Virus record (IMG/VR): IMGVR_UViG_3300025018_000355
Location: 1-34,260 of that record
Strand: one strand, 5' to 3'
Length of the DNA stretch: 34,260 nucleotides
Source: a virus
Lineage: Duplodnaviria > Caudoviricetes
The translations under genes were made by a program, and so were the position numbers. The notes beneath the pieces were generated by a model. The model did not search any database. It had not been told where the DNA came from and saw only the letters and a list, made by a program, of their open reading frames with translations. This document shows, piece after piece, positions 2,790 through 34,260 of the stretch (position 1 is the stretch's first letter; every line of letters begins with the position of its first letter).

Positions 2790-2863
2790 TTTTCCCTATT
2801 TACACATACATAATAATGGTATTAAATAGACTTAATATAAAAATAAATATGAAAAAAGGAAAT

Positions 2864-3460
2864 ATGAAAATATCTCTGCCCAAACCAAATAAGGAGAAAA
2901 CAATCAAAGTTATAACGATTATAACTTCTGGGATTCTCTTAACTTCAATTGCCACCGTGGCAATAAACTCATTCTTCATGGAACATTATCTGGATTTTCA
3001 AAGTCCAATCGTTCTTAGAAGCCCGATTCTCGTCCAGAACAGAACAGATGCCCAATATATATCCCCAATAGGTGTGGAAGCTGTTTCCAACGCCACAGAG
3101 TCAGCAGAAACCACCAAAGAAGAAGAACCTATCGTTGAAGAAGTTAGCCTAACGCCATCTCCAAGACTAATTGCTCATTCTGAGGCACGACCAGATATAT
3201 ATGCCAAAATCGTTGAACACTTTGGAGATGAATCAATCCTAGCAGGAGAACTTATAGCCAGAGAATCAAGTTTTAATCCTTTAGCAATCAATCCAACATC
3301 AGGTGCTTGTGGCCTTGCTCAAGCATTACCTTGTGAAAAGATGGATTGTGATCTTACAGATGTAGATTGCCAACTAGAATGGATTGGTGAGTATGTAGAA
3401 AATAGGTACGGAAACTTTGAAAATGCCATAGCATTTCACGATGAGAAAGGTTGGTACTAA
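2864..3460 (+). CDS. membrane-anchored lytic transglycosylase (SLT/lysozyme-like fold)
   Basis: N-terminal TM helix; RESSFNPLAINPTSGACGLAQ motif and YVENRYG...GWY end; AAGGA RBS before ATG 2864. Confidence 0.75.
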   Translation: MKISLPKPNKEKTIKVITIITSGILLTSIATVAINSFFMEHYLDFQSPIVLRSPILVQNRTDAQYISPIGVEAVSNATESAETTKEEEPIVEEVSLTPSPRLIAHSEARPDIYAKIVEHFGDESILAGELIARESSFNPLAINPTSGACGLAQALPCEKMDCDLTDVDCQLEWIGEYVENRYGNFENAIAFHDEKGWY

Positions 3461-5021: not shown

Positions 5022-5252
5022 ATGAATAACTTTTACACATCAGATCTTGGACTAGCCTCAGCAATGGTTAGTGTTGGAATACCACTAATATCATTGGATA
5101 AATCTAATCCTAAAAGAGTTGAGTTTGTCTTTGAAGAAACAAAAGAATTGCAGGAAGCGATCAATAGTTATTGGTCAAGTGATCTACTTGTTAGCCCACT
5201 AACTTACTTTAATGCAATGAAAATGCTAAAGAATAGGATTTACTCAGCATGA
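5022..5252 (+). CDS. DUF5659-like protein
   Basis: FYTSDLGLASAM...KRVEFVF...YW...LLVSP..YFNAMK.LKNRIY pattern. Confidence 0.65.
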   Translation: MNNFYTSDLGLASAMVSVGIPLISLDKSNPKRVEFVFEETKELQEAINSYWSSDLLVSPLTYFNAMKMLKNRIYSA

Positions 5253-5746
5253 ATACCATACAAATAACTAAATTCTTGGATGAATCAAATAAGATTGAGG
5301 GTGTTTATGATGCTCAAAGTCTAGATCAAGCATTATTTGCTTGGGAATATTGTATTGCTCAAGATGAGTTAAGTATCGGAGTCATATTAAAGACTCATAA
5401 AATACTCATGCTACATCAGCCACTATTTCCAGATGAAAAAGGCTATCTAAGAGAAGTGCCTGTGTATATTGGTGGTCGTGAAGCTATGCACCATTCTCAA
5501 TTAAGAGGTGCATTACAGGCTTGGACTACCAGATCAAACTTAATGGTTCACTACCCTGGATCTAGGATCTCGGATGATATAAAACTCCACCATGTTGAGT
5601 ACGAAAGAATACACCCATTTGTAGATGGTAATGGAAGAACTGGTCGTATCTTTATGAATTGGCAGAGAGTTAAAGCAGGATTGGATATAGATATTATCTA
5701 TGAGAATGAGAAGTACGATTACTATAAATGGTTTAAAGAATTATAA
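5249..5746 (+). CDS. fic: Fic-domain protein (class II)
   Basis: Canonical HPFVDGNGRTGR motif; N-terminal SNKIEG matches the (S/T)xxxE(G/N) inhibitory motif. Confidence 0.9.
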   Translation: MNTIQITKFLDESNKIEGVYDAQSLDQALFAWEYCIAQDELSIGVILKTHKILMLHQPLFPDEKGYLREVPVYIGGREAMHHSQLRGALQAWTTRSNLMVHYPGSRISDDIKLHHVEYERIHPFVDGNGRTGRIFMNWQRVKAGLDIDIIYENEKYDYYKWFKEL

Positions 5747-11071: not shown

Positions 11072-11683
11072 ATGCCAAGTGCAAACTTCGGAGAGAAGAC
11101 CAATCTTGATAATAGGTCATTTTTTGTAGAGTTAAAAGAAAAGGACGATAGTATTGAGTTCCTTATAGCAGGTGGTGGTTACTATGATGGTAAACATTTC
11201 ATGGCTACTGAGGAGGGTGGTTGGGATATTATTGACTGTCCACGAATCATGGAAGCAAATCCATGTGATCTTTGTCAGAAATACTTTGATCTGAGAAAAG
11301 AGGCTAAAGATCAAGAGGGCGATGAAAAGAAAGCAACTCTTAAAAAGGCAAGATCATTTAATGCAAAAATTACTTTCTTCTATCCAATTGTTGATTTAGA
11401 AACTGATAAACCAAAAGTTCTTAAAACTGTTTTATCTGTAAGATCGCAATTAGAATCAGACCATAAAAAAGGACTACAAGTTCTTGGTTCTGCTTATGAA
11501 CTCTCTCGCCCAGAGGGGGAAGAAGACTATTACAAATTAGAAAGACTCGGAGTTCCAAAAGAATTATCTGAGGAAACAAAAACTGCCTACAAAGAAGCTA
11601 CTGAAATAAATCTTGAGGAGCTAATTGTAGGTAAACAGTCATCACAAAAGTTCCAAGACGATGTGAAAGAGGCTGTACTTTAA
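11072..11683 (+). CDS. gp32-like single-stranded DNA-binding protein
   Basis: H...CP...PCDLC zinc-ligand set, aromatic strands, acidic C-terminus; AAGGAG RBS. Confidence 0.55.
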   Translation: MPSANFGEKTNLDNRSFFVELKEKDDSIEFLIAGGGYYDGKHFMATEEGGWDIIDCPRIMEANPCDLCQKYFDLRKEAKDQEGDEKKATLKKARSFNAKITFFYPIVDLETDKPKVLKTVLSVRSQLESDHKKGLQVLGSAYELSRPEGEEDYYKLERLGVPKELSEETKTAYKEATEINLEELIVGKQSSQKFQDDVKEAVL

Positions 11684-11684
11684 T

Positions 11685-12263
11685 ATGATGAATAATCTAC
11701 CCTCACTTGAGCAGAAAAGAGAATTAGCATGGGAAATGTATCAGACCTTACGGCAGTCTGTTGTAACTCAGGCTTTTCTATTTATAGATATCGGCAAAAA
11801 ACTTAAAGATATACGGGACGATAAACTATATAAGTATCTCGGTGAGGGTGGATATTCAACTTTTCAACATTTTTTAGCTAATCCAGAACTAGGATTACGA
11901 CCATCAACAAGCTATCTCTATATCAGATTATATGAATACTATATTGAACAGTTACAAATAACCAGAGAACAGCTTATTGAAATCCCTATCAATAGACTTA
12001 TGCGATTACTTCCAAGCCTTAAAGAAATGCCCGATGATGAGGCTAGGGAAACTATTACCGATCTTGGACAACTTACTAGCTATGATTATGATATTGAAGT
12101 AGTTGAAAGAAATATTGAGAAAGCCAGACCAAAGTTATTTAGAAATAAAGAGAATGGTATGTGGAAGTTTGAGTTTGATCCTGAAAGCATGGAATCAATT
12201 GTGAATACTCAAACAGGAGAAGTCTTATATGGCAGTACGGATACAATTAAACCCAACGATTAG
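11685..12263 (+). CDS. hypothetical DNA-associated protein
   Basis: FIDIGKKLKDIRDDKLY...GYSTF pattern common in phage proteins. Confidence 0.55.
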   Translation: MMNNLPSLEQKRELAWEMYQTLRQSVVTQAFLFIDIGKKLKDIRDDKLYKYLGEGGYSTFQHFLANPELGLRPSTSYLYIRLYEYYIEQLQITREQLIEIPINRLMRLLPSLKEMPDDEARETITDLGQLTSYDYDIEVVERNIEKARPKLFRNKENGMWKFEFDPESMESIVNTQTGEVLYGSTDTIKPND

Positions 12264-12393
12264 TGAGGCTGAACTTATCTTACAAGGATTAAGAATGATC
12301 CAAGATGAGTTACAGGGTACTCAACAACTTAATTATAGAGAAGAACAAGAACTTGAATCCCTTATTAGTGAAATAATTCAAGAATTAGAATAA
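12229..12393 (+). CDS. small acidic protein (54 aa)
   Basis: Translated by hand (MAVRIQLNPTISEAELILQGL...); AGGAG RBS. Confidence 0.55.
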   Translation: MAVRIQLNPTISEAELILQGLRMIQDELQGTQQLNYREEQELESLISEIIQELE

Positions 12394-12412
12394 TTGTATC
12401 AGTAAGAAATAC

Positions 12413-12450
12413 TTTATAGAAACTTAAATATAAAGTATAATACTGGTATT
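12413..12450 (+). promoter_or_regulatory. promoter with overlapping near-palindrome
   Basis: TTTATA-N17-TATAAT(12436-12441); AATACTGGTATT at 12439-12450. Confidence 0.5.
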
Positions 12451-12459
12451 AAGGAAATC

Positions 12460-12687
12460 ATGATTAGATATTATACAAAAACAGAAGTACACCGAATCCT
12501 CAAAGATAAATACTCCATTGATGTATCATACGAAACCATTTGGGCGTGGGAGAAAAAGGGCTTTATCCAACCTAGTGGATATACTATGCGTGGTACTCGT
12601 AAAATGCCTATCTATACCCAAACTGAGATTGATGACTTCATAAATAAAGTGGAAGATCTTCGTAAAGAGGGCAAGTTAAGAATCTAA
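12460..12687 (+). CDS. MerR-like HTH DNA-binding protein
   Basis: VSYETIWAWEKKGFIQP...IYTQTEIDDF. Confidence 0.7.
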   Translation: MIRYYTKTEVHRILKDKYSIDVSYETIWAWEKKGFIQPSGYTMRGTRKMPIYTQTEIDDFINKVEDLRKEGKLRI

Positions 12688-12708
12688 AACTTATAATGCG
12701 TTATAAAA

Positions 12709-13167
12709 ATGTTCTATTCAAAAGCAAATCAAGTAAAGACAAAGGTAAAGAAGCGAAAAACTAGGACAGATAAACAAAAGGCGAAAGATAAAGCGTGGAG
12801 ATCATTTTCAGACTATATCAGGACGAGAGATAGTTTGAAGACCACGAGTACTTTAACAAGGTGTGTGTGTATAACTTGTGGAAAAACAGTTCCATACAAG
12901 AGGATTCACGCAGGACATGGAATCGGAGGACGAACCAATTCTATTCTGTTTGATGAAAAACTGGTAAATGGTCAATGTGATAGTTGTAATGTATTTCATG
13001 GAGGCGAATATGAAATATATGCCAGTAAACTCATAGAAATGTATGGCATAGATATGTATAACGAGTTCTTAGCTAAAAAGAAAAGAACAGTTAAATATAC
13101 AACTCAAGATTATATAGACATATCAATTATGTATAAAAATAAAAGGACGAAATTAGTAACACCATAG
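12709..13167 (+). CDS. ninG: NinG/Rap-like recombination endonuclease
   Basis: FSDYIRTRD, CITCG, HAGH, NGQCDSCN. Confidence 0.8.
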   Translation: MFYSKANQVKTKVKKRKTRTDKQKAKDKAWRSFSDYIRTRDSLKTTSTLTRCVCITCGKTVPYKRIHAGHGIGGRTNSILFDEKLVNGQCDSCNVFHGGEYEIYASKLIEMYGIDMYNEFLAKKKRTVKYTTQDYIDISIMYKNKRTKLVTP

Positions 13168-13185
13168 AGCTGACCAAAGGCTATT

Positions 13186-13923
13186 ATGGATTACAAACAT
13201 GACTACAAAGACATAAGTGAATTATCTAATTGGGATAAAAACCCAAGAGATATCAATGATAAAGAATTGGCTCGGCTAAAACTCCAGATTCAAGAATTAG
13301 GAATCTATAAGCCATTCATTATCTTAGAAGATGGAACTGTCATTGGTGGAAATATGAGGCTTAAAGCCTGTCGTGATCTTGGTATTAAAGGTAAAGTTCC
13401 TGTTAGTATTATTTATCCAAAGAATGAAAAAGAAAAAATCCAGTATGCTCTATCAGATAATGACAGGGCTGGTTTTTATATTGAAGCTGATGTTAGGCAA
13501 TTAGTCTTAGACAATCCTGATTTAGAACTTACTACTTATTCTATTGATTTAGGAGAACAAACATCTTTACAAGGTTTAATGGATGATGATGGCCTTGATG
13601 ATGATTACTCACAGAAATTAGGAGAAGTGGTTTATGAACCAAAAGAAACCAATCATAAAGTTAGTGATATCTTCCAAAAAGAAAATAAGTTTGATAAAGA
13701 AATTGAATCCTTAGAAAATGAGGAGATAAAAGAAATGCTACGACATCGTGTAGCCTATTTCTCTAACTTTGACTTTCCAAAGATTGCTGATTACTACGCA
13801 TATCAAGCAACACCAGAGGAACAACGCATAATGGAGAAGTTGGCCTTAGTATTACTTGATAAAGACCAACTCATTGAAAATGGCTTTAGTAAGATAATTA
13901 GTGAATTGGAGAATAATGGCTAA
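13186..13923 (+). CDS. ParB/Srx N-terminal domain fused to uncharacterised C-terminal helical domain
   Basis: KNPRDI...LK.QIQELG..KPFII...VIGGNMRLKA...LSDN. Confidence 0.8.
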   Translation: MDYKHDYKDISELSNWDKNPRDINDKELARLKLQIQELGIYKPFIILEDGTVIGGNMRLKACRDLGIKGKVPVSIIYPKNEKEKIQYALSDNDRAGFYIEADVRQLVLDNPDLELTTYSIDLGEQTSLQGLMDDDGLDDDYSQKLGEVVYEPKETNHKVSDIFQKENKFDKEIESLENEEIKEMLRHRVAYFSNFDFPKIADYYAYQATPEEQRIMEKLALVLLDKDQLIENGFSKIISELENNG

Positions 13924-14782
13924 AAATAAATCCAAAACCCCACTAAAACTCAACACAATCTACATTATTTCCAAAGGAAGACCACATTGTAAGACTGCTG
14001 AAACACTTACTAAAATGAACTATCCTGGCGAATGGTTTATTGTAAATGGCACTAATGATGACAAACATACTGAATATGTAAAAAAATGGGGTAAAGATAG
14101 AGTTTTACTATTTAATTGGGAAGAAGAAGTTAAAGAATCAAACCTCTTAGATAACTTTGGTGTAGAAAATATGAGTAGTGGTGCAGTTCCAGTTAGAAAT
14201 GCTACCCGAAGAATAGCCGAAGAACGAGGAGAAACACGCCATTGGCAATTTGATGATGATTACTCTAGCTTTAGACATATCAATAAAGATTTACAAAAGA
14301 ATGAAACCATAACTGATGGTAGTTTTTTTGAGTATGAGTTAAATAGGATTGCTACATTTGCTCATGAAGCAGGTTTAACTAATGTTGGTTTTAGTTTAGG
14401 AATGGAATCACATCCTCAGATGGTTAAGACATTTAGTAAAAGAGTCTTTAATGCTCATAATATGCCAACAGATCCAAAGAAGTTTAATACTTGGCGTGGA
14501 AGAATGAACGATGATCTTATCAATGCTTTAGATGTGTTTCATACAGGTAGATATGAGATGAGTTTTAAGTTTATGACTTTAATGCTTGCCCCGACTCAAT
14601 CTGAGAAAGGAGGCAACACCGATATCTATGAATTATCAGGAACAGTTAGAAAAACAGCGTATGCAGTCTTAATTGAACCAAAACATTGTAAGTTAAAAAT
14701 TAAGTATGGTAGATATCATCATGAAGTAAATTGGCGAGGTGTTGTACCAAAGATACTCAGGGAGAGCTATGCAAAAATATGA
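13916..14782 (+). CDS. GT-A glycosyltransferase, TET-associated (TAGT)/GREB1-like
   Basis: IYIISKGR, GAVPVRN, HWQFDDD, WRGRMNDD, TQSEKGGNTDIY, RYHHEVNW; GGAG RBS before ATG 13916. Confidence 0.75.
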   Translation: MAKNKSKTPLKLNTIYIISKGRPHCKTAETLTKMNYPGEWFIVNGTNDDKHTEYVKKWGKDRVLLFNWEEEVKESNLLDNFGVENMSSGAVPVRNATRRIAEERGETRHWQFDDDYSSFRHINKDLQKNETITDGSFFEYELNRIATFAHEAGLTNVGFSLGMESHPQMVKTFSKRVFNAHNMPTDPKKFNTWRGRMNDDLINALDVFHTGRYEMSFKFMTLMLAPTQSEKGGNTDIYELSGTVRKTAYAVLIEPKHCKLKIKYGRYHHEVNWRGVVPKILRESYAKI

Positions 14783-15872
14783 TTTTCTTTTAGTTGGTGC
14801 TGGTTTATTTAATGCTACCTTTGCTTCTATTGCACACCATAGATATGGTAAAAAATGTGCTGTTATTGAAATGAGAGATCATATAGGCGGCAATATCTAT
14901 ACAAAAAAAGTAGAGGGTATTGACGTTCATTGGTACGGAGCACATATCTTTCATACTTCAAATAAGATTGTCTGGGACTATATCAATACTTTTGGTAAGT
15001 TTAATGATTTTAAGAATACTCCAATAGCTATTGTTAAGGGAGAGACTTATAACCTGCCATTTAATATGAATCTTTTTAGTAAGGTTTTTGGCGTAACCCA
15101 TCCAGATCAAGTAAAAGCAATAATTGAGAGAGAAAAAGCAGAGTTTAAAGATAAACCAATCAAGAACTTAGAAGATCAAGCATTATCTATGGTGGGAAGG
15201 ACTATCTATGAAACCTTTATCAAGGGATATACAGAAAAACAATGGGGCAAGAAGTGTACTGAATTACCTCCTGAAATTATTAAAAGACTCCCTCTTAGAT
15301 TTACTTATGATAATAATTATTTTAATGATACTTATCAGGGTATTCCAAATGATGGGTATACTTCAATAATTGAGAAAATGTTAGAAGGTAGTGATGTGTT
15401 TCTTAATACTCCATTTGAATCAAATCATGGAATCACAGCAGATAAGATAATCTATACAGGAATGATTGATAAGTTTTTTGACTTCATTCATGGGGCTTTA
15501 GAATATAGAACGCTTGATTTTCAACACAATATCTATGATACGGATAATCATCAAGGCAATGCAGTTTTCAATTATCCAAGTGAGTACATTCCCTATACAC
15601 GAAGCATTGAACATAAACATTTCAACTATAAACCCACCGAAAAGACGGTAGTAAGTTTTGAGTTCTCTAGCCAATTTAATCATAATGATCCTAAACAGAT
15701 TCCATACTATCCTATTGGTAATAAAAGAAATAAAGAAATCTATGCTAAATATCTTGAGGAAGCAAAGAAAATCCCAGAGATAATCTTTGCAGGTAGATTA
15801 GGAGAATACAAATACTACGATATGGATGACACCATTGAATCAGCAATGAAACTGGTTGATAAGATTTTATGA
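14769..15872 (+). CDS. glf: UDP-galactopyranose mutase
   Basis: VGAGLF, HIGGN, HWYGAHIFHT, YTEKQWG, YDNNYFNDTYQGIP, PYYP, GRLGEYKYYDMD. Confidence 0.95.
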   Translation: MQKYDFLLVGAGLFNATFASIAHHRYGKKCAVIEMRDHIGGNIYTKKVEGIDVHWYGAHIFHTSNKIVWDYINTFGKFNDFKNTPIAIVKGETYNLPFNMNLFSKVFGVTHPDQVKAIIEREKAEFKDKPIKNLEDQALSMVGRTIYETFIKGYTEKQWGKKCTELPPEIIKRLPLRFTYDNNYFNDTYQGIPNDGYTSIIEKMLEGSDVFLNTPFESNHGITADKIIYTGMIDKFFDFIHGALEYRTLDFQHNIYDTDNHQGNAVFNYPSEYIPYTRSIEHKHFNYKPTEKTVVSFEFSSQFNHNDPKQIPYYPIGNKRNKEIYAKYLEEAKKIPEIIFAGRLGEYKYYDMDDTIESAMKLVDKIL

Positions 15873-16534
15873 AGTTAGCAGTAAGAATACAACACCACCC
15901 ATCAAGAGTAAGACATTTAGCTTTATTAGAAAATCTATTGGATGAAACAAGAGTTGAGGTAATTGAGGATACTACCAACACACTAAGTGGTTGTAAAAAG
16001 GCTTTAAGTTCCATAGGTAGTGATGATACTCATATTTTAGTCTTACAAGATGATTGCTTACCCTCTAAGGATTTAATCGCTACCTGTAAAAAGATCATTA
16101 AGGTAATTCCAGATAAACCAATTACTTTATTTAGTGCATACCCAATAGTAACCAGAGCATTAAAAAGAAAACAAACATTTGCAAAGGCTAACTTCTTTTA
16201 TGGAGCAGTTGCATATATTCTTCCAAGAGAAATTGCCAAAGGATTTTTAGAGTTTAGTCCTAGATTGATAGATACAGTTACCCAAGATGAAATAGGATTA
16301 TCAGTCTATTTTTATACAAAAGGTATTGAAACATATATCACAGCACCTAGTTTAGTAGAACACCTTGCTTGGAGAGAAAGCACCTTGAGTGATACTAATA
16401 ATAGAGAAAATAGAATAGCAGATAGTTATTTAGGTTTAGAAAAAAGTGGATTAGATATTGATTGGCAATTAGATGATCCTCCACTTTTATTTAATGAAAC
16501 AGTATCTAAGTATGAAACGAGAATAAAGAAATGA
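15869..16534 (+). CDS. GT-A fold glycosyltransferase-like protein
   Basis: HPSR, HILVLQDD, GAVAYILP, QDE, PSLVEH (GT25-like layout). Confidence 0.65.
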   Translation: MKLAVRIQHHPSRVRHLALLENLLDETRVEVIEDTTNTLSGCKKALSSIGSDDTHILVLQDDCLPSKDLIATCKKIIKVIPDKPITLFSAYPIVTRALKRKQTFAKANFFYGAVAYILPREIAKGFLEFSPRLIDTVTQDEIGLSVYFYTKGIETYITAPSLVEHLAWRESTLSDTNNRENRIADSYLGLEKSGLDIDWQLDDPPLLFNETVSKYETRIKK

Positions 16535-16977
16535 CAAACAAAGACCTACCTGTTGCAAATCCAAATGGTAGACCAACAGTAATGACTCCAGAAACTTTAG
16601 AAAGATTAAGAAGTGCTTTTGCTATTGGTTGTACTAAAAAAGAAGCCTGTGCTTATGCAAAAATTGGAAAGTCTACTTTATACGACTACATAAATCAAAA
16701 CCCAGAGTTTTCGGATGAAATTGAGGAGTTAATACAAACACCAATATTAAAGGCTAAACAGACAGTTACAAAAAATCTTGATGATCTTGAAACTGCTAAA
16801 TGGTATTTACAGAGAAAGAAAAAAGACGAGTTTGCCAATACTTTAGTTGATATAAAGCAGGATAATAGAAGCGTACAAATAGTAAAAAATGATCCAAGGG
16901 TAATAAATACACTTATGAAATCATTTGAATCTATGATGGAAAACATCAAGAAATTGCCCGATGATGAAGAATCTTGA
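16531..16977 (+). CDS. terS: terminase small subunit
   Basis: GRPTVMTPE followed by HTH (EACAYAKIGKSTLYDY); directly upstream of TerL. Confidence 0.75.
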   Translation: MTNKDLPVANPNGRPTVMTPETLERLRSAFAIGCTKKEACAYAKIGKSTLYDYINQNPEFSDEIEELIQTPILKAKQTVTKNLDDLETAKWYLQRKKKDEFANTLVDIKQDNRSVQIVKNDPRVINTLMKSFESMMENIKKLPDDEES

Positions 16978-18571
16978 GGAAATACTAGAAAGAGAAGCGT
17001 TGTTAGGCCGAGTAAGTGGCGATAAAAAGATTGTGGTTGAAAGATTATTAGAGGGATACAACTTCATTGAGATTACTAAGTTTGAAAATATTAGTAAGGC
17101 TCAAGTGTATCGGATTAAGAAAGAATTACAAATGGAGTACAAAGACATTCTTATTAAACATCAAGATGAGGTTGTTAAACAAAACCATAGACAAATAAAA
17201 AATCTTTTTGATAATGCAACTGTTATATCAAAGGGTAACAAACTAGCTCGTTTCAACGATTATTTTATCAATGATTATGATCCAGAAGCAACGGAAAAGA
17301 ATTGGGTATCTACTCAGTTGCAGGATGATATGTACGATATATGGGAACAATATCCTAAAAGTTGTATCATGGCTCCTCGTGAACATCTTAAAACTACATC
17401 AGTTATTTCTTATCTAATCAAAAAGATCTTTGAAAGAACTTATCCCATTGAAATCAACTACTATCATTTAGTTAAAGAAATTGCCGAGGAAAAGTTTAGA
17501 AAGATGAGGCTTATTATTGAATCAAGTCCATTACTTGCTCATAATTTTGGTCTTAAAGATCTAACAAAGGATACACAATCACATCTTGAGTTGTTGGATG
17601 GTACAGTTATGAAGCCAATGAGTTGGGGTCAAGGTTCTGTTGGTAAACATCCACATATTATTGTTCTTGATGACGTTATTGATAGGCGTGTTGCTTACTC
17701 CGATGATCGTAATAATAAAGCAATTGATAGATTCTACTCTGATATTTATCCTCAAATTAGTAAAGACGATAAAGAAAAGAAAATCATTATCATTGGTACT
17801 GCTCAAAGAGAAGACGATTTATATAGTTCTTTACCTACTGATTTTCATAAAAGAGTTTATAAAGCCATAAAACCAGATGGACAACCACTATCCCCAGAAC
17901 TATTTAGTTTAGAAGCATTGGATAAGATTAAGGCTGATATATCAGAGAAGTTTGGAGAGAAATATTGGCTTAAAGAGTATATGAATACGCCATTTAATGC
18001 GATGGGAGATATTATCAAAAGAGAGTGGATTCAGAGATATAAAACAATTCCAGATGGATTGGATATCTATCAAGGTTGGGACTTATCTGTTGGTAAAGAT
18101 CCTGAAAAGGGAGACTATACTGGTGGTGTAACTATTGGTGTTAAGAAAATTGATGAGATGATGCTAATATATGTATTAGATGTGTTTAGAGAAAGACTTG
18201 ATTTTGATGCACGTTTAAGAGCAATCACAGAACAGGCTAATAAGTGGAAACCACTAAAGATTGCTATTGAGGAGAATACTTTTCAATACGATACTGTTCA
18301 AACTATGATTAAGCAAACTAATCTTCCTATATCTGGTGTTAAGACTTTAAAGAATAAGATTGAGAAGTTTATTGTTGATCTTGCTCCACATTTTGAGAAT
18401 AAAAAGATCTTTATCGGGTATGATAGTGGTGATGAACAAAAGTTTGATTTATTATTAAATGAACTTCTATCTCTACCATTCGGAGAACATGATGACCAAG
18501 CAGATGGTTTAGTATTAGCAATAAAAGCAAGTGCAGTGGATTCTGATGTTCCATTCATTGACTTTCTTTAA
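16961..18571 (+). CDS. terL: terminase large subunit with N-terminal HTH extension
   Basis: Walker A-like APREHLKTT, Walker B IIVLDD, coupling motif IIGT, nuclease GWDLS and HDDQAD. Confidence 0.9.
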   Translation: MMKNLEEILEREALLGRVSGDKKIVVERLLEGYNFIEITKFENISKAQVYRIKKELQMEYKDILIKHQDEVVKQNHRQIKNLFDNATVISKGNKLARFNDYFINDYDPEATEKNWVSTQLQDDMYDIWEQYPKSCIMAPREHLKTTSVISYLIKKIFERTYPIEINYYHLVKEIAEEKFRKMRLIIESSPLLAHNFGLKDLTKDTQSHLELLDGTVMKPMSWGQGSVGKHPHIIVLDDVIDRRVAYSDDRNNKAIDRFYSDIYPQISKDDKEKKIIIIGTAQREDDLYSSLPTDFHKRVYKAIKPDGQPLSPELFSLEALDKIKADISEKFGEKYWLKEYMNTPFNAMGDIIKREWIQRYKTIPDGLDIYQGWDLSVGKDPEKGDYTGGVTIGVKKIDEMMLIYVLDVFRERLDFDARLRAITEQANKWKPLKIAIEENTFQYDTVQTMIKQTNLPISGVKTLKNKIEKFIVDLAPHFENKKIFIGYDSGDEQKFDLLLNELLSLPFGEHDDQADGLVLAIKASAVDSDVPFIDFL

Positions 18572-18600
18572 GGAATAAAAGAGTACAAATCTTTTATAAT
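18571..18600 (+). promoter_or_regulatory. late-type promoter AGGAAT-N18-TATAAT (portal)
   Basis: AGGAAT 18571-18576, TATAAT 18595-18600. Confidence 0.65.
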
Positions 18601-18608
18601 GGTTATAT

Positions 18609-20678
18609 ATGACAATCAAAGACTTTATCTCAGGATTATTTAGCAAGAGCAATGGAGGTTGGAACTATTTTTATTCCTCAGCTCCATATGTAAGTAAGAA
18701 AAATCAAGAATATTATTTTGGTATTATCTTTTCTGCTACTGATGCAATCGCTAAGGCTGTTCAAAACGTAGAGTACGGACTTTATAAAAAAAAAGGAGAT
18801 GATTACGAGGAAGTTACTGATCATCCTGCTATCAAACTATTAAAGACTCCAAACGTAATTCATTCAGACAGAGACTTCTTATATACTTTCTCAAGTCATA
18901 TTGATTTATATGGTCAATCATTCTTATGGCCTATCAGAACTTGTATGAGTTCTAAAAACATTGTTGAGTTAAGAATACTTAATGCAAGTAATGTTCATAC
19001 AATCCCAAGTGATGAAAATCTTATTGATGGTTATAAATGGAAAACTGGTACTAAAACAAGAGACTTTGAACCTCAAGAGTTAGTAAACATCTTACGTCCT
19101 GATCCTATTGATATGATCAATGGACTATCTACTATTCAAAAGGCTAAATACGAGGGAGATAACGAACTTAATTCTCAAAAACTCAATGCTTCATTTTATG
19201 AAAATGGTGGTCTTCCATCTGGTGTCATTTCAACAGATAGTGCAGTAGATCAAAAGACCTTTGACATGATTAAACGCAGAGTTAAACAACAATATGAAGG
19301 TGTAAAGAATTCGTATAAGGTAATGTTCTTAACTCATGGTGCTAATTACAAAGCTATTCAACCAACTCAAAGAGATATGGAATATGTATCTCAAAGAAAA
19401 TTAAACAGAGATCAAATCTTATCTATCTTTCAAGTGCCTGGGTCTGTTATTGCTGTAAGTGAAAACTCAAATAGAGCAGTTGCAGAAGTTGAACTTCGTG
19501 CTTTCATGGAAAATACTGTTGAACCACGATTAAGATTTATCTTTGATAAGTTAAATAGATTCTATCTTCCAATGTTTGAAGGAACTGAGGGAATGGAACT
19601 AAGATTTGAAAGTGTAGTACCTGCTGATAGACAGTTTGAACTACTTGAAAAAGTACAATCAGTTAGAAAATGGAGAACTCCAAATGAAATTCGTGCAAGT
19701 GAAGGACTAGAACCTATTGAAGGTGGTGATGGATTAGACTCTGCTACTAATTTTAGCTTTAATCCTGCTGATACCTCAAGTGATGAGGATATTTCAGGGG
19801 ATGATACATCCGATGATAAAAATAAAGCCGAAAATAAGGCATTAGAAACCCTCGCCCAGGCGTGGAGTAAAGAAAAAGAATGTACAGACTGTAACAAAGG
19901 GGATCATAAGACCAAATTAGAGGAATTACCAAAGCCATCTGACCAATCAAATAAAAAAGATAGGGAATATACACGAAGACGTAATAGTTATATTAGTGCA
20001 AAAGAAAAGAAATTTGCATTAGAACTTAATCAACACGTTAGTTTTTTAATTCGTGATATCAAAAAAGAATCAATAAAGATGGTTAAGGGTATTGAAGAAG
20101 ACTTTGAACTCACGCCACAAGTTGTTGAAAGTAAAATACTTCCCGATGATGAGAAGATTGAGCAATGGAAGACAATGCTTTTCTTAATGATACTTAAAAA
20201 TAACACTCAGATTTGGAAAACTGCTTCTAAACAAATGAATGATGTGTATGGTTATAAAGAAATTGAGGTTGATAGATTAGTCTCTAACTTTATTTCTGAT
20301 AGAGCCAACTTTACTTCTAAATCTGTAAGTACAACTATATTTAAACAAATCAGAACTTCAATTGATAATGCTGTAAAGAATGGAGAAATTGATTTAAGAA
20401 AAATTAAAGATATTGTTGTTGATAATATGAGGGATGTTAAAGATTGGAAAGCAGAACAGATTGCTCGTACTGAATTAGCTTGGTCATATTCTGAGGTTCA
20501 AATGAAAACCTATAAAGAAAATGGTGTTGAAAAAGTAAAGTGGGTTTGTGGTGGAAATCCTTGCGAGATCTGTGCAACTAACTGTGGAGAGGAAGTAGAA
20601 CTAAATAAGTCTTTCTCAAGTGGTCATACCAATGAACCTGCTCATATCAACTGTATGTGTATGGTAGTAGCAACATAA
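18609..20678 (+). CDS. HK97-type portal fused to MuF/head-morphogenesis domain
   Basis: FYENGGLPSGVI, ILSIFQVP, TPNEIRASEGLEPIEGGD (portal); AEQIARTE...KW...CEIC...PAHINCMC (MuF). Confidence 0.85.
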   Translation: MTIKDFISGLFSKSNGGWNYFYSSAPYVSKKNQEYYFGIIFSATDAIAKAVQNVEYGLYKKKGDDYEEVTDHPAIKLLKTPNVIHSDRDFLYTFSSHIDLYGQSFLWPIRTCMSSKNIVELRILNASNVHTIPSDENLIDGYKWKTGTKTRDFEPQELVNILRPDPIDMINGLSTIQKAKYEGDNELNSQKLNASFYENGGLPSGVISTDSAVDQKTFDMIKRRVKQQYEGVKNSYKVMFLTHGANYKAIQPTQRDMEYVSQRKLNRDQILSIFQVPGSVIAVSENSNRAVAEVELRAFMENTVEPRLRFIFDKLNRFYLPMFEGTEGMELRFESVVPADRQFELLEKVQSVRKWRTPNEIRASEGLEPIEGGDGLDSATNFSFNPADTSSDEDISGDDTSDDKNKAENKALETLAQAWSKEKECTDCNKGDHKTKLEELPKPSDQSNKKDREYTRRRNSYISAKEKKFALELNQHVSFLIRDIKKESIKMVKGIEEDFELTPQVVESKILPDDEKIEQWKTMLFLMILKNNTQIWKTASKQMNDVYGYKEIEVDRLVSNFISDRANFTSKSVSTTIFKQIRTSIDNAVKNGEIDLRKIKDIVVDNMRDVKDWKAEQIARTELAWSYSEVQMKTYKENGVEKVKWVCGGNPCEICATNCGEEVELNKSFSSGHTNEPAHINCMCMVVAT

Positions 20679-34044: not shown

Positions 34045-34260
34045 ATGAAAAAAATTTGTTTACAAGCTGGTCATAAGGGAAGAACAACTGGAAGTACAGG
34101 TGCTCCAGGTGAACAAAAATGGACTTCTGAGATTGTTCCTAAAATAGCTTCCATTCTCCGTTCTCGAGGTTTTGAAGTAAAAGAAACTGGAGCAGATGAT
34201 TATAAAACTGATAAATCAATCGGTTCTACTGATTGGGATTTATTTTTATCTGTTCACTAT
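34045..34260 (+). CDS. N-acetylmuramoyl-L-alanine amidase (Amidase_3) endolysin, 3'-truncated
   Basis: MKKICLQAGH...GAPGE...DLFLSVH: zinc ligands H, E, H. Confidence 0.8.
   Translation, partial: MKKICLQAGHKGRTTGSTGAPGEQKWTSEIVPKIASILRSRGFEVKETGADDYKTDKSIGSTDWDLFLSVHY

Follow-up and report, generated by a model that had tools for sequence, protein, structure and literature searches.

A ParB-TAGT-glf cassette beside the terminase genes

We analysed the IMG/VR virus record IMGVR_UViG_3300025018_000355 in its entirety, as one stretch of 34,260 nucleotides that we refer to as the window, and our main focus is on a glycosylation cassette that runs into its packaging genes. Six genes occupy 13186-18571, all on the plus strand and all open and intact: a ParB-like protein (13186..13923), a glycosyltransferase (GT) of the TAGT family (13916..14782), glf, encoding a UDP-galactopyranose mutase (UGM; 14769..15872), a second, GT-A-type glycosyltransferase (15869..16534), and the small and large terminase subunits, terS (16531..16977; phrog_4102, E 8e-24) and terL (16961..18571; phrog_38, E 6e-62). 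Each gene overlaps the next, by 8, 14, 4, 4 and 17 nt in this order, in agreement with a preliminary description in which the cassette was said to run by overlaps directly into terS-terL. The GC content of the cassette genes (32-34%) is similar to that of the remainder of the genome. The locus consists of two modules, ParB-TAGT-glf and a separate second GT.

Because 11500-18734 is spanned with 0 differences by one contig of a public sequencing run, possibly the run from which the window itself derives, a misassembly was ruled out. Near-identical pieces are present in three other groundwater runs. An apparent joint at 13695-16429 in X2/X3 was dropped, as it was based on short matches of unrelated, much deeper contigs.

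The ParB-TAGT-glf module and the adjacent second glycosyltransferase

The product of 13916..14782 is a TAGT, a family with GREB1 as a eukaryotic member, as had been proposed from the sequence. It matches PF20691 at 59.6 bits (cut-off 27.5) and phrog_842 (E 2e-24), TAGT models head the viral fold matches to its predicted model (TM ~0.7), and GT-A folds are matched in the PDB. The motifs D113-D114-D115 and N198-D199-D200 are invariant among 13 aligned rows. The TAGT probably starts a glycan, because a genome with 100% completeness by CheckV (G002) carries ParB-TAGT and no other GT detected by Pfam in its scanned open reading frames (ORFs). Elsewhere, an Atopobiaceae contig holds a tandem pair of TAGTs downstream of ParB (L067:931-2620), and TAGTs of the window's clade are seemingly broken or split in Methanobrevibacter and Prevotella assemblies (L068, L069).

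Judging from its sequence, Glf likely makes UDP-galactofuranose (UDP-Galf). It scores 378.8 bits against TIGR00031 (equivalog cut-off 303.75) and aligns over its full length to the E. coli UGM (1I8T), with intact active-site motifs that are the same as in the E. coli enzyme. In these mutases, His and Lys as in E. coli may mark specificity for Gal, and Arg/Arg, as in 4MO2, for GalNAc; Glf carries the E. coli-type His and Lys.

To relate glf to the TAGT we used two samples. The first comprised TAGT loci and seven cultured phages, collapsed at 90% identity and with the window excluded; the second comprised 98 loci in 59 clusters, with one source search represented by the best 80 of 463 and with 10 re-fetched contigs dropped. 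In the first, glf lies beside the TAGT in 12/25 evaluable clusters of the window's TAGT clade (2 were too short) and in 1/56 other TAGT clusters (13 too short); in the second, the corresponding counts are 3/3 new clade clusters and 0/51 evaluable others. Pooled, this gives 15/28 versus 1/107, counts that are not independent since the clusters are kin. Two of the three new clade clusters have the order glf-ParB-TAGT, so that two gene orders occur overall and the glf-TAGT link therefore survives rearrangement. TAGT and glf identities also co-vary (Mantel rho 0.54, p 0.009, 10 loci). In a quick tree, the 14 cassette glfs, that of a Prevotella prophage among them, fall inside a single supported group that also holds Firmicutes-type enzymes, whereas the sampled host glfs of Bacteroidota lie elsewhere (the label needed 2 changes). 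An origin of the cassette in a host cell-wall operon was rejected given its phage context and this separation, and the survey that the preliminary description had called for ties glf to this TAGT clade across phages, the three-gene module recurring in phages that are not related. UDP-Galf is quite likely the donor used by the TAGT.

One of the counted glfs (L076:948-1808) encodes a short, divergent mutase of 286 amino acids directly after a clade TAGT and may use another sugar. In another genome (G001; L237:9598-14559), ParB-TAGT-glf is immediately preceded by an array of five genes, among which are two for GT-B-type glycosyltransferases and one for an FkbM methyltransferase.

The ParB-like protein has two domains, ParB-N (about residues 1-110) and a C-terminal domain, ParB-C (about 136-245), which has no family name. 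The N-terminal domain matches PF02195 at 18.2 bits, below the cut-off of 26.3, yet the protein matches phrog_620 (E 7e-24) and its predicted model matches ParB/Noc structures (E 2e-6). An atlas search with ParB-C matched unnamed viral clusters only. All occurrences of ParB-C that were found are next to TAGTs: it is present in 22/24 clade clusters with sufficient upstream DNA in the first sample, adjoins the TAGT in 59/59 clusters of the second, and forms a stand-alone gene beside the TAGT in Vibrio phage pv27. Across 21 loci, ParB-C identity tracks TAGT identity (rho 0.87), in contrast to ParB-N (rho -0.10). The predicted ParB-C/TAGT complex scores 0.76, compared to 0.00 for the best control; this score was reached by 116/157 solved complexes and 2/215 mismatched pairs, counts that are rough for the alignments used here. 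Contact agreement between runs was at least 86% and partner pLDDT at least 81, and the top contacts lie between TAGT residues 277-282 and two conserved stretches of ParB, 197-204 and 221-234. ParB-C is predicted to dock onto the TAGT and is likely its obligatory partner domain. The window has the gene order of a ParB-enzyme-terminase locus, with the ParB-N gene directly upstream of an enzyme gene and terS/terL, and co-divergence together with the complex, the latter as a prediction only, marks the ParB C-terminal domain as partner-specific.

The second GT has no Pfam match but matches phrog_854 (E 6e-10), and it is homologous to Che8 gp110 (hhalign probability 97.7%, 15% identity); a 13-sequence family profile that holds no named mycobacteriophage protein matches gp110 at 64 bits. 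When the second GT itself served as the query, neither viral contigs nor cultured phages gave a match and the PDB gave no clear one; matches came from the profile and from a relative. Among the best 80 of 132 viral loci with this GT, glf is nearby in 0/80 and a TAGT in 2/80. Conversely, it occurs among TAGT loci L001-L150 only in the window's own record, and a gp110-like GT is found in 1/59 TAGT clusters of the second sample. In close relatives its position varies: it lies ahead of terS, in the interval from terS to terL, or amid the head genes with the major capsid and adaptor genes on either side, and a GT2 of ~470 amino acids often accompanies it. Three uncultured phages (L160, L161, L163) have the major capsid gene on one side of a gp110-like GT and the head-tail adaptor gene on the other, and virion glycosylation may be common in this group. 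Since 0/5 kin genomes with the second GT match the clade TAGT profile, ParB-TAGT-glf is an accessory insert beside it. Che8 gp110 is essential for capsid glycosylation (PMC12363180). No Ser/Thr-rich capsid tail was seen in the window. The second GT is likely a virion-protein glycosyltransferase that forms a separate module. The earlier suggestion that it extends Galf to a disaccharide was rejected, given its homology to gp110 and, at the 80 loci, the lack of glf and the rarity of TAGTs.

Target and acceptor of the TAGT

What the TAGT modifies can be approached through the genes that occupy the same slot before terS in kin phages. Phages whose head and tail genes are shared with the window fill the ParB slot in several ways. 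L152 has ParB, a queuine-tRNA-ribosyltransferase-like (TGT/DpdA-like) gene and a queuosine-precursor transporter there (L152:8729-10808), which would probably serve 7-deazaguanine modification from an imported precursor; L159 has a ParB-N6/N4 methylase fusion, L154 a sister-clade TAGT, and L151 and L156 ParB alone. Cooper has ParB-TET/JBP at this place. DpdA-like, methylase and TET/JBP enzymes act on unmodified DNA bases. These occupants bear out the view that ParB here is the partner of a DNA-modifying slot beside the terminase, and because the slot swaps enzymes that act on unmodified bases, an unmodified base was ranked first as acceptor. ParB-activated T-dioxygenases likewise act on an unmodified DNA base (PMC13229309), and the phage TAGT that has been characterised, from T2/T6, has DNA as its substrate (PMC13216743). 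DNA is, in our judgement, probably the target. Coupling to packaging is suggested by gene position only, since ParB/5mYOX pairs function when co-expressed in E. coli (PMC13229309). In Cooper (L258:785-2387), gp2 is annotated as a queuine tRNA-ribosyltransferase and matches Tet_JBP, and gp3 is annotated as terS and matches a P-loop nucleotide kinase.

The preliminary description had proposed a hydroxymethyl-pyrimidine acceptor. We found no gene that would supply one. Pfam scans of the 55 window ORFs revealed no dioxygenase, ThyA-type or methylase domain. Six-frame searches for Tet_JBP gave 0 matches in the window and in 0/54 related records, with the control, Cooper gp2, found at E 4e-8 and itself under the cut-off. 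Searches for the ThyA/thymidylate-synthase family found none in the window or the close clade and matched 4/56 records (the T6 control, Aeh1, pv27 and G090). C5 methylases were found in 2/55 records, in one of which, from the clade, the gene is broken, and N6/N4 methylases were not found in the window. Three clade genomes, in which 121/126 listed ORFs were scanned (5 opposite-strand shadows were omitted), gave no primer gene; G003 has one small-domain methyltransferase. The metagenomic records searched are mostly fragments; 7 records are at least 90% complete and 7 come from cultured phages. Pfam misses divergent 5mYOX enzymes (PMC13229309). The hydroxymethyl-pyrimidine proposal was accordingly not sustained: the genome has no TET/JBP, ThyA-family or DNA-methylase gene that these searches detect, and the first two are absent from the clade records searched. 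ParB-TAGT without a recognised primer is also present in Lactobacillus, E. coli, Nocardia and Haloarcula phages, and in the gene maps that we examined the module has no other recurrent neighbour.

The explanation that we favour, with confidence and doubt about evenly balanced, is that phage DNA is galactofuranosylated without a primer and that the virion is glycosylated separately. Glf would make UDP-Galf as donor for the TAGT, the ParB C-terminal domain would grip the TAGT through the predicted interface, and the TAGT would transfer galactofuranose directly to the DNA of the phage itself. The most likely acceptor would be an unmodified base, modified at a restricted set of positions, with a phosphate of the backbone or an end cut by terminase as the alternative. 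Expression would be late, together with terS-terL, the benefit would be shielding from host nucleases, and the second GT would separately glycosylate virion proteins. It is tempting to speculate, though we hold this only tentatively and lean towards doubt, that one-step glycosylation of unmodified DNA, needing no prior oxidation of the base, is carried out by a widespread ParB-adaptor/TAGT enzyme, and that in the window's clade the sugar installed is galactofuranose.

Several observations weigh against primer-less DNA galactofuranosylation. The acceptor hydroxyl is not accounted for, characterised phage DNA GTs act on a primed base or sugar (PMC13326640, PMC13216743), and Pyle et al. (10.1101/2023.12.21.572611) regard a GT as less likely to be DNA-modifying when it has neither 5mYOX nor ThyS as a neighbour; in their survey, a primer was lacking on ~65% of GT contigs, which were set aside. 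A direct profile comparison of the TAGT to the T6 enzyme gave no detectable similarity (probability 0.2%). ParB-C DNA adjoins the TAGT gene, so linkage alone could explain part of the co-divergence, and conservation at the predicted TAGT interface is 0.55 versus 0.71 for the remaining TAGT. The window avoids palindromes (mean z -6.5 for 4-mers and -3.3 for 6-mers), but kin without the module are equal in this respect (-6.2/-3.2 in G011 and -6.0/-3.3 in G012), these z-scores being inflated by two-strand counting and valid as comparisons only. The k-mer analysis identified no target motif. Unchanged avoidance is compatible with a recent gain of the module or with modification that is only partial, and does not speak for global protection. 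On the donor side, the glf counts carry the kinship of their clusters, 13/28 evaluable clade clusters have no glf despite sharing the clade TAGT signature, the Arsenicibacter genome with a glf-less clade TAGT has no glf found anywhere in the genome, and glf occurs in 12/61 sampled genomes of the phylum of the Prevotella genome.

Some of these points would be met by a protein target, with the TAGT putting Galf on a virion protein, terminase, portal or host factor and ParB-C merely stabilising or localising it. No base-priming gene was found, palindrome avoidance is unchanged, a capsid-type GT adjoins (with a further upstream GT array in L010), and GREB1 has been reported as a protein O-GlcNAc transferase (PMC7968844). 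We nonetheless consider this unlikely, given that the gp110-like GT is so rarely found at other TAGT loci and that the enzymes otherwise identified in the ParB slot work on DNA. The glf-less members could instead mean that ParB-TAGT glycosylates DNA with a common donor (UDP-Glc or UDP-Galp) and that glf is a passenger or feeds another process. No TAGT column divides glf-bearing from glf-less clade members beyond I/L/V swaps, one host lacks any detected glf as described above, and the sister clade has glf in 0/6 and 0/51 evaluable clusters of the two samples. Against this, glf is strongly restricted to one clade, is present in two gene orders and diverges in step with the TAGT; of the four named hosts, two that harbour glf-less members carry glf elsewhere (G006, G007) and one has a cassette glf with a partial second copy. 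A common donor thus seems quite unlikely.

It also seems very unlikely that a primed base does exist, its hydroxyl or first modification being supplied by an unrecognised phage protein, by ParB-C itself or by a host enzyme. The characterised cases cited above need such a base, many 5mYOX enzymes escape Pfam (PMC13229309), the Cooper control fell under the cut-off, and CheckV puts the completeness of the window at 29%. The recurrence of primer-less ParB-TAGT in phages of such different hosts and the lack of any other gene recurring beside the module speak against it. So does the genome itself: because the window ends inside an Amidase_3 endolysin, the same proteins are carried on a 35,404-base contig, and four relatives with 100% CheckV completeness measure 33-37 kb (one with a collinear structural module), we treat the window as near-complete, with ~1 kb unseen, despite the CheckV figure. 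The original model, in which Galf sits on a hydroxymethyl-pyrimidine and is extended by the second GT, could draw on the overlap of all four genes in one operon and on the di- and trisaccharides that T6-type TAGTs and 5mYOX-linked GTs build on DNA (PMC13216743, PMC13326640). It is nevertheless hardly likely at all, as there is no source of a hydroxymethylated base and the second GT is gp110-like and keeps other company.

The window, which is the entire record (G000), otherwise encodes siphovirus replication, packaging, head and tail genes. The truncated endolysin (34045-34260) at one end and a holin-like ORF (81-353; C-terminal hydrophobic stretch only) at the other would be consistent with a circular genome short of ~1 kb. 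A portal fused to a gpF/MuF-like head-morphogenesis domain lies at 18609-20678, and early genes at 5249-5746, 616-1059 and 2816-3460 encode a Fic-domain protein, a MazG-like pyrophosphatase and an SLT/aggregation-promoting-factor-like protein, respectively. A promoter scan was uninformative (25 sites versus 30.1 by chance). In G002, a reverse transcriptase follows a 2660-amino-acid gene (L241:1826-11484), an arrangement that resembles a diversity-generating retroelement.

Comparison with known systems

In the literature covered, routes of phage DNA glycosylation need a hydroxylated base from a ThyA-type synthase or TET/JBP. Hundreds of phages have TAGTs lacking such a partner, and the function of these solitary TAGTs, found in 288/753 genomes, is stated to be open and undefined (PMC13216743). 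The locus described here names a likely donor, UDP-Galf, and a likely obligatory partner, ParB-C, in a three-gene set small enough to express, so that their function can be tested directly. Cultured dairy phages and a halovirus are ready models for the sister clade, whose cultured viruses include Lactobacillus c5 and jlb1 and HHTV-2. One-step ParB/TAGT glycosylation, with galactofuranose as the sugar in this clade, would if true mean a new nucleoside and a new route of DNA glycosylation, and some of the solitary TAGTs of phages would be accounted for.

One of the closest known systems is that of the ParB-dependent T-dioxygenases (5mYOX/ParB, for example Cooper gp1-gp2; PMC13229309). Here ParB is instead paired with a glycosyltransferase, and the searches of the window revealed no dioxygenase; a stable complex is predicted here, unlike for 5mYOX176, for which none was trapped. 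With the T2/T6 beta-glucosyl-HMC-alpha-glucosyltransferase (PMC13216743), the TAGT shares PF20691, the PHROG family, the GT-A fold, and the DxD and xED-type motifs. The T6 enzyme extends alpha-glucosyl-hydroxymethylcytosine and its gene lies near the hydroxymethylcytosine synthase (PMC13216743), whereas the window's TAGT has no primer gene that we could find, has a ParB partner and glf, and is only remotely similar.

The preliminary description knew of no characterised Galf-modified phage DNA. A UDP-Galf route via 5-hydroxycytosine was already proposed for phage RL38J1, in which galactose is the base-proximal sugar (PMC13326640), and our search of openly accessible literature found no characterised ParB-TAGT product. 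The likeness to RL38J1/Pootjesviridae lies in a phage UDP-galactopyranose mutase proposed as source of UDP-Galf for DNA glycosylation (PMC13326640). RL38J1 primes its base with a 5hodCMP synthase (PMC13326640), a gene not found in the window, and neither a TAGT nor ParB adjoins its glf, which falls outside the cassette glf group in the quick tree.

Similar to the second GT, Che8 gp110 and Corndog gp38 belong to phrog_854 (PMC12363180, PMC11256854). The window differs from several of its kin in having no GT2 partner of ~470 amino acids, and its second GT retains only the 15% identity to gp110 given above. The locus also points to gp110-type glycosylation of virions far outside the mycobacteriophages.

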